Assembly: GCA_036785375.1 (NCBI GenBank)
Contig: JAWMAR010001256.1
Coordinates: 62,001 to 126,000 of the forward strand
Length of the DNA stretch: 64,000 nt
Origin: Leucoraja ocellata
Taxonomy: Eukaryota
Direction: 5' to 3'
The notes under the pieces were generated by a model. That model was not told the DNA's origin. It saw only the letters and a program-made list of their open reading frames with translations, and did not search any database. The position numbers and the translations under genes were made by a program. Each line of letters opens with the position of its first letter. Positions within the stretch are counted from its first letter, which is position 1. This document shows, one piece after another, positions 27,689 to 63,109 of the stretch.

Positions 27689-27755
27689 ATGGATGCGGGA
27701 CTCACGCCGTGGGCTGGATACCTTTACATTTTGACCTGGTTGTTTACTGTGGCAG
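27689..27755 (+). CDS. Gene A exon 1, signal peptide MDAGLTPWAGYLYILTWLFTVA
   Basis: ATG in CpG-rich unique DNA, hydrophobic core, donor CAG|gtacct, 67 nt, phase 1. Same length as and homologous to gene B exon 1. Confidence 0.82.
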
Positions 27756-30700
27756 GTACCTGCGGCGAGGCTGCGCTGTCATTATATCTGACCGCGGTTA
27801 CCGGTAACACGGCGCTTAGTCATGGCTGTAATCATATGTGCTCAGATGCTGGGGGTTTGGCTGAAGCTGGTTCTTGGTGGGAGAAAACTTGTCCATGGCG
27901 TCGCCGACCCCCGCCTCCCCTCTCCCCCTCCCAACCCCAGTTCCCCGTCACCTCTGGCAAAACCCACACCCTGAACTGGCCACTGATTTATCTTCGCTTC
28001 TAACAGTGAGATTCTCGGGACCGGACTGCAGTTGAAGTTTAGAAACGTGGTAAATAGGTGCAGGAGGCCATTTGGCCCTTCGAGCCAGCACCGCCATACA
28101 TTGTGATCATGGCTGCTCACCCACAATCAATAACCCGTGCCTGCCTTCTCCACATATCCCTTCATTCCGCTAGCCTCTAGAGTTCCATCTAACTCTTTTA
28201 AATTCATCCAGTGAATTGGCCTCTGTTGTCCTCTGTGGCAGAGAATTCCACAAATTCACAATTCTCTGAGTGGAAAAGTTTCGTTTATAGACACACAAAA
28301 TGCTGGAGTAACTCAGCGGGTTAGGCAGCATTTCTGGAGAACATCGATAGGTGACTTTTCGGGTCAAGACCATTCTTCATATTGAATGGCGGTGCTAGCT
28401 CGAAGGGCCGAAGGGCCTATTACTACACCTCTTTTCAATGTTTCAGTCTGAGAGTTTAGTTTATTATCAAAGGTTTATTGTCGAGGTACAATGAAAAGCT
28501 TCCACGTCCTGATTCACATTAAGGTGCAATGAAAGGTGAAATAGTTACAGGGACGGGGTGGCTGTTCTAATATAAAACACAAGGTGCTGGAGGAACTCGG
28601 CGGGTCAGGCTGCGTCTATGGAGTGAAATGGTGGGGCAACGTTTCGGGTCGGGACATTTCAGACTGACGGAGAAGGATGAGAGGAGGGGGGGAGAAAGGA
28701 AGCTGAAAAAGAACGACCTCATGCTTCATCAGAAAAGTCCCGACCCGAAGTGTCATCTGTCGCCCCCCCCCCCCCCCCCCCCACACCTATACCAAGCCAA
28801 TGAATCGACAAACCTGTACGTCTTTGGAGTGCGGGAGGAAAGCGGAGACCCTGGAGAAAGCCCACGCAGGTCACAGGGAGAACGTACAAACACCGTACAG
28901 ACAACACCCATAGTCAGGATCGTACCCGGGTCTCTGGCGCTGTGAGGCAGCAACTCTACCGCTGCGCCACCGTGCTGCCCTTGGATTTTCATTATCTATT
29001 ATCTGTACTATTTGTAACGTGATTTCTTCTCTTGTCCAAAATTGTGGCTGCAGATACAGTATTGATCAAAGCAGAACCGTCAGCTGTGGAATTTGGACAT
29101 CCTTTGATAGTGAACTGCAGTTCATCTTGTGTAGCAACAAGGATATTCATTGAAGGAACGAAAGGATCTAATGTAACAAAACAACCTCAATGGGTGGCAC
29201 ATTCTTACTCAACAATTCTGGTGTGGTCTCTTCAAATGCATTGCACTGCGATATGCTCACCTGGGGAAAAAGATGACCAGAATACAATAATTCCTGTCTA
29301 CAGTAAGTACAAGAATTTCTCTTCAGCTTTTTTCCACAAGTAATAGTTCTTACTCAATAATCAAAAATCTGTAGCCTCCTTTTGCTCTGACATTATATTT
29401 AATTCACATGTTTAATCAATAATGATTTATTATTAAGGTTTAATGTTTAGTGTTATTCCTAACTGACACTGTATGTCATGTTGTCACTTGCGGGCGGAGT
29501 ACCAAGGCAAATTCCTTGTATGTGAATACCTGGCCAATAAACTTAATCATTCATTCATTCATTTACACAAAGGTGGAATTGACACAGCTGAGCAATGTGC
29601 CAATGTCTCTCACGGTTTCCAGTAATGGGAAGGCTGTAGAACACAAGAGCACAGCCTCAGAAAAAAAGGACGTATCTTCAGAATGGAGATGAGGAGGATT
29701 TTTTTCAGCCGGGGAGGTGCAATGGTGGAATTCACTGCCACTGATGGCGGTGGAGGCCAAGTCATTGAGTATTTTTAAAGCAGAGGTTGACAGGTTCCTG
29801 ATTATTAAGGGCGTCAAAACTCATAGGGAGAGAAGGCAAGAGGATGAGATTGAGTGGGAAAAATAGATCAGACTGAATGGCGGCATAGACTTTAGTTTAG
29901 AGATACAGCTCAGAAACAAGCCCTTCAGTCCACCAAGTCCGCACTGACCAGCGATCCCATCACACTAACATTATCCTACACACACTGGGGACAATTTGCA
30001 TTTATACCAAGCCAACTAACCAATCAGTACCCCGTTCCTGCCTTCGCCCCATATCCCCTGACTCCGCTATTTTTAAGAGCCCTATCTTGAAAGTATCCAG
30101 AGAACCTGCCTCCACCGCCCTCTGAGGCAGAGAATTCCACAGTTTCACCACTCTCTGTTTGAAAAAGTGTTTCCTCATCTCCTTTCTAAATGGCTTACCC
30201 CTTATTCTTAAACTGTGGTCCCTGGTTCTGGACTCCCCGAACATCGGGAACATGTATTAGCCACCAAACATATTTTAGCTACCAAAAAAAGCTCCGATCT
30301 CCTCAGTCCAATAAAAAACAGAGGATGTTAAACTAGTGGCCGTGAATAATTCTTAAGTGATGTGGCAGTGACCTCTCCTGCTTCATCACACTGGTTGTGG
30401 TATAATGTAGTTAGACAACAATTTCAGATAAGCCTGTTTCAGCAGCCCCATGTTAATGGAGTCGATTGTGTCTAAAAATACTGACACAGGATCTCGTTTT
30501 CTCTTATCTACAGCTCAGATGACATAAAGTGTTTAGTTTATTTATCCAGAGGAAATGGGGTGCCAGAGGACACATATTTGCTGTTAGAGTTCTTTTAAAC
30601 AAAGATTGTTGAAAGTTAAATCAGCTGCCTCCTCACCCTTCTGTTCTTTCATCCCTCACATAATTCCTTCCCTGATTACAATATCCTGACCATTATTATT

Positions 30701-61200: not shown

Positions 61201-63109
61201 AGTACCTTCCTTACGCCCAGGAATTAAATCAGTGGACTATTTACCATTGTTTTGAAAGCAAAGAGTTCCCTGAAGTGACATAGAAGCCTCTGGCTTGTTA
61301 CCAGCCAGGGTGGAGATGCTAAATACTATAAATCCCCTCCCATTCCCACACCAACCTTTCTGTCCTGGGCCTCCTCCATTGTCACAGTGAGGCCCAACAC
61401 AAATTGGAGGAACAGCTCCTCATATTTGGCTTGGGCAGATTACACCCCAGTGGTATGAACATTGACTTCTCTAACTTCAAGTAACCCTTGCTCTTCCTCT
61501 CTCTCCATCCCTCCCCCTTCCCAGTTCTCCCACCAGTCTCCCCAATGACATTTTGTCTCCGTTTGCTTTGTGGTCACCTTCTCCTATTCTACATTCTGAT
61601 CTATTCTACATTTTTCTTGATCCTCATCTTGTCTCATGTCATGATATTGTCATAACCTCATCTATTATATTGTCTCAGGTCTCATTTTGACACCTTCCTT
61701 ATCGCTGTATCTCCCTCTCCCCTGATTTTCAGTCTGAAGAAGGGTCTCGACACAAAATGTCTCCTATTCCTTCTCTCCAGAGATGATGCCTGTGCCGCTG
61801 AGTTATCCAGCATTTTGTGCCTATCTTCGGTGTGAACCAGCATCTACAGTTCCTTCCTACACCTGGTGTTCAATGGGAACTTTGCCAGTGTTGCCCAAAC
61901 ATTGAGGACATTTCAAATTGCACTCATCAGGATGCGTTCAACCAACATGTCACTAGGTTTGATGAGATTGGTATAGGGGGTGAATGATGCCGGGAATAAT
62001 AGGGTGACTTTGGGTGATTGCCTCCGATCATTGTCCAACTACAGTTGGATGTAGAGCCATAGCTAAAGTCAATTAACCTACAAACCTGTACGTCTTTGGA
62101 GTGCGGGAGGAAACTGGAGGACCTGGAGAAAACCCACACAAGTCACGGGGAGAATGTACAAATTCCGTACAGACAGCACCCATAGTCAAGATCGAACCTA
62201 GGTCTTTGACACTACTATAAGGCAATTACATAAGGTGAGAGCATGCTGACCGGTTGCATCGTGGCTTGGTTCAGCAATTTGAGCGCCCTGGAGAGGAAAA
62301 GACTACAAAAAGTAGTAAACACTGCCCAGTCCATCATCGGCTCTGACCTTTCTTCCATCGAGGGGATTTATCGCAGTCGCTGCCTCAAAAAGGCTGGCAG
62401 TATCATCAAAGACCCACACCATCCTGGCCACACACTCATCTCCCTGCTACCTTCAGGTAGAAGGTACAGGAGCCTGAAGACTGCAACAACCAGGTTCAGG
62501 AATAGCTACTTCCCCACAGCCATCAGGCTATTAAACCTGGCTCGGACAAAACTATGATTATTAATAACCCATTTTCTGTTATTTGCACTTTATCAGTTTA
62601 TTTATTCATGTGTGTATATATTTATATCATGGTATATGGACACACTTATCTGTTCTGTAGTAAATGCCTACTATGTTCTGTGTGCTGAAGCAAAGCAAGA
62701 ATTTCATTGTCCTATACAGGGACACATTACAATAAACTCACTTGAACATTAAAATCTACCGCCGCGCCACCGTGCTGCTCTAAGCTTTGATAGGGTTTCT
62801 AACAATATCTTTCTGTTGTTGCAGTTTTCTCCGAACCTGTAATCCAAGCATCACTGACCATCATTGATGGAAAACCGGTGAATATTACCTGCAGTGTGTT
62901 TAATGTCTCGGGAGAACTTCAACTTACACTGAAGAATGGGAATATGTCTTTGCCAAGCGAGTCATCCAGTACAGAGCACACTATCTACCACACTTTGCAT
63001 CCAAAGATGGAGATGAATGGACAGCAGTTGACTTGTGTGGCTAAACTGACACTCCAAAATCACTCTGAACCCATTGTTAAGCAACAGAATATCACACTCA
63101 ATGTGCAAA
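55181..63109 (+). CDS. Gene B: ICAM-family protein, at least 4 Ig domains, 3' incomplete; join(55181-55247,56584-56859,58358-58672,60291-60584,62825-63109,...)
   Basis: All-phase-1 exons with canonical splice sites join in frame. Exons 1-3 are paralogous to gene A. Last visible donor at 63110 implies more exons; none recognised before 64000. Confidence 0.88.
55476..55779 (+). repeat. Degenerate (TG)/(GTGA)n microsatellite in gene B intron 1
   Basis: Read directly. Confidence 0.95.
56584..56859 (+). CDS. Gene B exon 2, ICAM-type Ig domain 1
   Basis: ttttctctgacag| acceptor, A|gtaagt donor; LNVTCRTTCLDPIIFMEL...PMVCSALC...ITVY (ICAM-1: VTCSTSCDQPKLLGIET...PMCYSNC). Confidence 0.92.
58358..58672 (+). 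CDS. Gene B exon 3, Ig domain 2
   Basis: tcaacag| acceptor, T|gtgagt donor; 315 nt; 54/105 residues identical to gene A D2 by manual count. Confidence 0.92.
60291..60584 (+). CDS. Gene B exon 4, Ig domain 3
   Basis: gtcttttcag| acceptor, G|gtaagc donor; SFPKPPRIL..EVNEEATLECEVQNVYPAE..W..EFTCRA. Confidence 0.92.
61335..61862 (+). mobile_element. Penelope-like element 3' part plus terminal repeat (similar copies about 5335-5613, 10550-10870, 40762-41188; minus strand about 15330-15680, 23150-23420)
   Basis: KLEEQ.LIF.LG.LHPSGMNIDFSNF coding remnant followed by the common repeat CTGAAGAAGGGTCTCGA...GATGCTGCC...TTACTCCAGCA...CAGTTCCTTCCTACAC. Confidence 0.75.
62234..62750 (+). mobile_element. 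Rex1/Babar-like LINE 3' fragment inside a SINE in gene B intron 4
   Basis: RLQKVVNTAQSIIG..KDPHHPGH..LLPSGRRYRS..RFRNSYFPTAIRLLN; the SINE continues at about 62755. Confidence 0.85.
62825..63109 (+). CDS. Gene B exon 5, Ig domain 4
   Basis: ttctgttgttgcag| acceptor, A|gtaagt donor; VNITCSV..MNGQQLTCVAKL. Confidence 0.9.

Follow-up and report, generated by a model that had tools for sequence, protein, structure and literature searches.

How two neighbouring genes of one family came to carry different numbers of immunoglobulin (Ig) domains is the question raised by a 64,000-nt stretch of the Leucoraja ocellata genome (assembly GCA_036785375.1, contig JAWMAR010001256.1, positions 62,001 to 126,000; the whole stretch is called the window, and all coordinates refer to it). 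The species is a skate, in agreement with a first-pass annotation of the window, which had recognized a probable cartilaginous fish from the sequence. Our analysis makes it probable that these two genes, called A and B below, are tandem skate ICAM paralogues, that gene A encodes a three-Ig protein and likely an alpha-I integrin ligand, and that its history comprises a duplication preceding the shark-ray split, loss of exons and, in sharks, conversion of the exon encoding the second domain (D2).

Structure and expression of gene A

Gene A consists of the following elements.

27689..27755, + strand: exon 1 (67 nt), signal peptide, phase 1; public contig X3 record 7 spans 27611-27754 and runs on into the D1 exon
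29054..29302, + strand: D1, ICAM_N domain (249 nt), with C44, C48, C86, C90 and Glu56; Pfam PF03921, 21.7 bits
32294..32608, + strand: D2 (315 nt); in sharks, this exon is homogenised between paralogues
32609..33111, + strand: intron between D2 and I-set (503 bp), about 71% repeats, without exon remnant, skipped exactly by public contig X1 record 3
33112..33390, + strand: membrane-proximal I-set domain, class I6 (279 nt); Pfam I-set E 3.4e-14; A-type clade 97/91
33981..34113, + strand: intronic partial duplicate (133 nt, 86%) taking in the I-set exon's 3' end and splice donor
35078..35241, + strand: transmembrane (TM) segment, short cytoplasmic tail and TAG stop (164 nt), in contig X1 record 3

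All four introns are of phase 1 and have GT-AG borders, and the reading frame is open over 357 aa in the order signal-D1-D2-I-set-TM-short tail. Contig X1 record 3 consists of 32404-32608, 33112-33388 and 35076-35284 with no intervening letters, and X3 record 7 joins the signal, D1 and D2 exons; since these contigs skip the predicted introns at their borders, they represent spliced sequence. The direct passage from D2 over the 503-bp intron to the I-set domain, read from the sequence in the first-pass annotation, is thus present as the 32608/33112 junction in a public contig. Proteins of 357 aa with the same layout are found in Amblyraja and Leucoraja (two skate assemblies) and in three Logan entries. 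Gene A is a real, expressed and old member of a known family.

Some observations on expression point the other way. The RNA origin of the X1 (and X3) runs is a guess, coverage by the raw-read run X23 is almost nil on the D2 exon of gene A and zero in the TM bin, and the D2/I-set junction is absent from the joint-table rows listed (15 of 1,966), the table being swamped by repeats.

Exons missing through misassembly had been a concern of the first-pass annotation, and the window does have one assembly gap. It lies outside gene A, which is free of N, and six-frame profile searches found no remnants of D3, D4 or I5 exons inside the gene. Together with the contig junction and the 357-aa proteins known from several Logan contigs and from two further skate assemblies, this makes it hardly credible that gene A is in reality longer and was wrongly assembled or predicted.

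The duplicate of the I-set exon at 33981-34113, in the intron following that exon, shows no sign of use. Soon after the TM segment (within 35078-35241) there is a Tyr in the context xEYK/xEYx, seen again in the tails of shark, chimaera and coelacanth proteins.

Gene B and its similarity to gene A

Gene B begins downstream of the only assembly gap in the window.

53223..53669, no strand: assembly gap between genes A and B (447 N), the sole gap in the window
55181..55247, + strand: exon 1 (67 nt), signal peptide, 96% match to residues 1-23 of P0208
56584..56859, + strand: D1, ICAM_N domain (276 nt), Pfam 24.1 bits
58358..58672, + strand: D2 (315 nt), phase 1
60291..60584, + strand: D3, class M3 (294 nt), present in P0224-P0226, not in P0047 and P0207-P0210
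62825..63109, + strand: D4, class M4 (285 nt), the final exon for an Ig domain, with the TM exon past the window end

All these exons are of phase 1, and the gene leaves the window after D4. The orthologues P0224 (504 aa), P0225 from Amblyraja and P0226 from Rhinoraja have the structure D1-D2-D3-D4-TM; as they run from D4 directly into the TM segment, gene B has four Ig domains followed by TM. Three-Ig variants also exist, D3 being missing from five Leucoraja-cluster proteins (P0047, P0207-P0210). Of the "D3, D4 and more" ascribed to gene B in the first-pass annotation, D3 and D4 are thus retained, and nothing more.

Genes A and B are most similar in D2 (53/104 identical residues, shuffle z 27.7), followed by D1 (27/81, z 11.3). 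The shared exon sizes (67 and 315 nt) and the homology of D1 and D2, all noted in the first-pass annotation, hold. The signal exons, described there as homologous, have only 7/22 identical residues (a plain count, read off the translations), and the D1 exons differ in size, 249 vs 276 nt.

The Leucoraja gene B models P0047 and P0207 have 2 or 3 copies of a Thr/Ser-rich mucin-like repeat before D1, which the window lacks. They differ from the "isoform" P0208 at 26 residues, which suggests that several B copies have been merged in one gene model. The gap at 53223-53669 is situated 1.5 kb upstream of the start of gene B and could hide more paralogues.

Assignment to the ICAM family

The Pfam cut-off for ICAM_N is 21 bits, so that D1 of gene A (21.7 bits) is a marginal hit and D1 of gene B (24.1 bits) a clearer one. 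The four D1 cysteines (CxxxC ... CxxxC) are conserved in all 50 chondrichthyan D1 rows, including genes A and B. The D1 glutamate, Glu56 in gene A, is invariant in 28/28 rows and present in 48/50 rows of the wider chondrichthyan alignment, where the two rows with Q are read as chimaera ones, with Glu two places on (as in the P0044 sequence). In the structural model of gene A D1 (predicted local distance difference test, pLDDT, 92), this residue ends strand 29-33, read as strand C, and the best fold matches are D1 of ICAM-5 and ICAM-2. The D1-D2 pair is nearer to ICAMs than to VCAM-1 or MAdCAM-1, with ICAM-2 and ICAM-5 best both by sequence and by fold, and the protein is a type I membrane protein with a short tail and one Ig domain per phase-1 exon. 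Judged by sequence and modelled fold, genes A and B belong to the ICAM family, in tandem and on the same strand, as first proposed.

Like mammalian ICAM-2 (PDB 1zxq) and D1-D2 of ICAM-1, ICAM-3 and ICAM-5, gene A combines an ICAM_N D1, carrying two disulphides and a strand-C Glu, with a D2 of the same type and type I membrane topology. It differs from ICAM-2 by an additional I-set spacer, and from ICAM-1 and ICAM-3 by the absence of D3 and D4. Gene A likely binds a leukocyte alpha-I integrin via Glu56 of D1. Lacking D3/D4, which in ICAM-1 comprise the Mac-1 site and the dimer region, it would act like ICAM-2, as a short LFA-1-type ligand plus one I-set spacer. The Glu is, however, followed by IEGT in gene A and MELK in gene B rather than by ET[S/P]L, as in mammalian ICAM-1, -2 and -5, and therefore the binding partner could differ.

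Other assignments were rejected. One-to-one orthology with any mammalian ICAM (1-5) does not agree with the D1 tree, in which the 27 chondrichthyan D1 are united in one clade (100/99), apart from the 11 bony-vertebrate rows, the opossum ICAM-2 being the only mammalian one. VCAM-1 and MAdCAM-1 belong to the Ig superfamily and have the D1-D2 fold in common with gene A, but they score lower and have a loop Asp, whereas in gene A there is a Glu at the strand end and the CD-loop Asp motif (QIDSP in the alignment) is absent. Hemicentin is a secreted protein of many tandem Ig repeats, and MAG has a V-set sialic-acid domain, while gene A has three Ig domains and TM, and in Pfam its D1 matches only ICAM_N. 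The NCBI names of the 357-aa orthologues, "hemicentin-1-like" in Amblyraja (P0012, with an additional "ICAM-2-like" isoform) and "MAG-like" in Leucoraja (P0221), are wrong, being driven by generic Ig matches.

Origin of the three-domain architecture

Among the 44 chondrichthyan relatives of D2, the number of Ig domains, drawn from six exon classes, runs from 2 to 14, and ten of the relatives are exactly D1-D2-I-set. Seven named species (skates, sawfish, sharks) have free-standing A-type models with three Ig domains, and in five further sharks the A-type triplet opens a longer model, either real or made of fused neighbours. The gene A lineage, with orthologues in sharks and rays, likely predates their split. 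The expansion described as lineage-specific in the first-pass annotation is so within cartilaginous fishes, given the D1 clade, with gene A as an old member.

Scored against the shark profiles, the third and fourth domains of named reptile and coelacanth ICAMs match D3 and D4 best, classes M3/M4 are common to coelacanth, lungfish and tetrapods, and in alignments the shark profile is collinear with ICAM-1 D1-D3 and with ICAM-5 from D1 into D4. By these sequence comparisons, the D3/D4 exons are ancestral. Given the single clade of chondrichthyan D1, it is simpler to assume that the A lineage lost them, and internal exon loss, the direction also favoured in the first-pass annotation, is likely. 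All Ig exons are of phase 1-1 and can therefore be dropped or repeated without a frame break. Gene A would thus stem from a duplication in which internal exons were lost in frame, likely before sharks and rays split.

Conversely, gene A could be a retained ancestral D1-D2-I-set triplet from which nothing was lost, the long forms being a parallel ancient lineage and the triplet being repeated in many fish ICAM/VCAM-like proteins. The triplet order is seen in at most 81/139 representatives and repeated in 43 (detected domains, an upper bound), and being so common it could be old rather than derived. Models from carp, tuna and knifefish are triplets or repeats of the triplet, and VCAM-1 has the same layout in D1-3 and D4-6. 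Chimaera models also lack M3/M4, with D1 grouping weakly with B (93/78) and I-set with A (80/70). In P0006 and P0008, a form with M3-M4 begins with an A-type D1, and many relatives are represented by automatically made models, of which some are probably fusions. Against a retained triplet, A-type D1 falls within the chondrichthyan clade beside B-types that keep M3/M4, these classes are common to coelacanth, lungfish and tetrapods, and the lizard triplet P0105 and its five-domain paralogue P0109 hardly differ in D1-D2, indicating recent independent shortening. We consider an ancestral triplet unlikely, and exon loss remains the preferred reading.

The three-Ig shape is ordinary and recurs in other vertebrates, contrary to the first-pass annotation, which had regarded it as exceptional. 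Models with the D1-D2-I-set-TM order exist in lizard (XP_053145172), turtle (XP_074835911) and carp (P0194); these are automatic models that fall outside the chondrichthyan D1 clade and therefore probably have a separate origin. One mouse ICAM-1 isoform is exactly D1-D2-D5. According to the available parts of the sources, three-Ig splice isoforms of ICAM-1 exist, D1 and D5 being always present (PMC10886500), functional isoforms are placed in mouse (PMC10215618), and trout ICAM-1 has 365 aa (PMC8417878). As in gene A, these isoforms keep D1 and the membrane-proximal domain and drop whole exons in frame, but they are produced by alternative splicing of a five-domain gene, while in gene A the shape is fixed in the genome.

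Several models are of interest in themselves. P0105 and P0109, a three-Ig and a five-Ig ICAM of the lizard Hemicordylus on a contig of equal length, are apparently a recent parallel to genes A and B. P0002, P0004, P0006, P0007 and P0008 (four shark species) repeat the D1-D2 layout with two A-type D1 copies that are nearly identical, an arrangement that is VCAM-like if real and may represent fused neighbours. P0043 from Callorhinchus has 14 Ig domains in all, with D1-D2 followed by 11 near-equal tandem I-set repeats.

Mosaic history of D2 in sharks

Trees of single domains disagree. The D1 tree contains an A-type clade (97/94) of 20 rows, namely 12 named species, the window and one Logan protein, and the I-set tree recovers the A clade (97/91, 14 rows, the group being fixed from the D1 tree). 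In the D2 tree, the A clade is rejected (approximately unbiased test, p-AU 1.1e-42; 14 label changes), the grouping being largely by species. In 14 pairs of A- and B-type units from eight shark species, D1 is 30-50% and D2 88-99% identical. In seven sharks, D2 has 23 species-private residues common to both paralogues, present in all seven species, and no paralogue-diagnostic columns; the respective numbers are 3 and 19 for D1, and 1 and 16 for I-set. Between A and B of rays, D2 identity is 67-68% in Pristis and 51% in the skate genes studied here, so that homogenisation lapsed there.

One homogenised exon between two unhomogenised ones is predicted by exon-limited gene conversion, while constraint alone or a recent whole-gene duplication predicts otherwise. 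Repeated gene conversion confined to the D2 exon is therefore likely in sharks, as the mechanism behind the pattern observed. After the duplication, D1 and I-set would have kept their own lineage, shark D2 was likely overwritten repeatedly by cluster members, and in rays and skates, the groups with the fastest-changing D1, conversion may have slowed down or ceased.

Near-identical D2 could also result from purifying selection or from gene models stitched together wrongly. This domain is conserved anyway, with a median identity of 81% over 55 orthologue pairs between species, several models look fused, and two models contain one and the same Heterodontus D2. Yet constraint would not yield species-private residues common to both paralogues, P0003 holds two non-identical D2 copies (97%) behind different D1 types within one model, and the pattern recurs in eight separately annotated shark species. 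We find this explanation quite improbable, and retain gene conversion. Weighing on the same side as the rival, conversion is derived from protein models alone, and the D1 trees are short (about 92 columns; LG+G4 without mixture) with long-branch warnings.

A milder precedent for low D1 and high D2 identity is given by human ICAM-1 and ICAM-3 (38% in D1, 77% in D2; available part of PMC10886500), and both gene conversion and escape from it are described for the CEA family (CEACAMs) in the available part of PMC7042247. Unlike these, sharks combine D2 identity of 88-99% in eight species with paralogues older than the shark-ray split and both flanking Ig exons unconverted. In the literature searched, no description of D2-limited concerted evolution in sharks was found.

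Fast evolution of D1 in skates

In skates, D1 evolves fastest. Gene A differs from P0222 at 6/82 positions in D1 vs 1/252 elsewhere (p 0.001), and from its Amblyraja orthologue at 18/82 vs 14/252 (p 5e-5). These differences are concentrated at residues 52-67 and 79-101, sparing Glu56, and six of the seven D1 differences in X3 are non-synonymous among those listed (a partial list). Gene B follows the same trend (identity 72-79 of 91 in D1, 91-94 of 93-94 in D4). These substitutions suggest positive selection on D1.

As a tentative wider picture, the chondrichthyan ICAM cluster may be an exon-level mosaic, with D1 and I-set of A private since before the shark-ray split, shark D2 converted, rays and skates escaped, and the skate D1 face around the Glu positively selected.

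Remainder of the window

A fragment of a long interspersed element (LINE) reverse transcriptase, open over 390 aa, is located at 48358-49527 on the minus strand (RVT_1, E 1.6e-26). By self-match, about 45% of the window consists of other LINE remnants and of those of short interspersed elements (SINE). No flanking gene was detected by Pfam within the window in the frames scanned (150/158 upstream and 129/129 intergenic).

Implications

A 2026 survey based on human queries put ICAM1-3 in its amniote group (available part of PMC13262535). According to our results, an LFA-1-type adhesion ligand built as D1-D2-D3-D4-I-set was likely present already in the first jawed vertebrates. Trees driven by D2, as well as automatic names (hemicentin-like, MAG-like, VCAM-like), misassign chondrichthyan ICAM genes. 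Positive selection on the skate D1 face, if true, fits a receptor exploited by pathogens. The three-domain shape alone being ordinary, the notable part is the D2-limited concerted evolution in sharks, which would be a clean case of conversion that for a long time stayed within a single internal exon, with sharks vs rays as a natural contrast.

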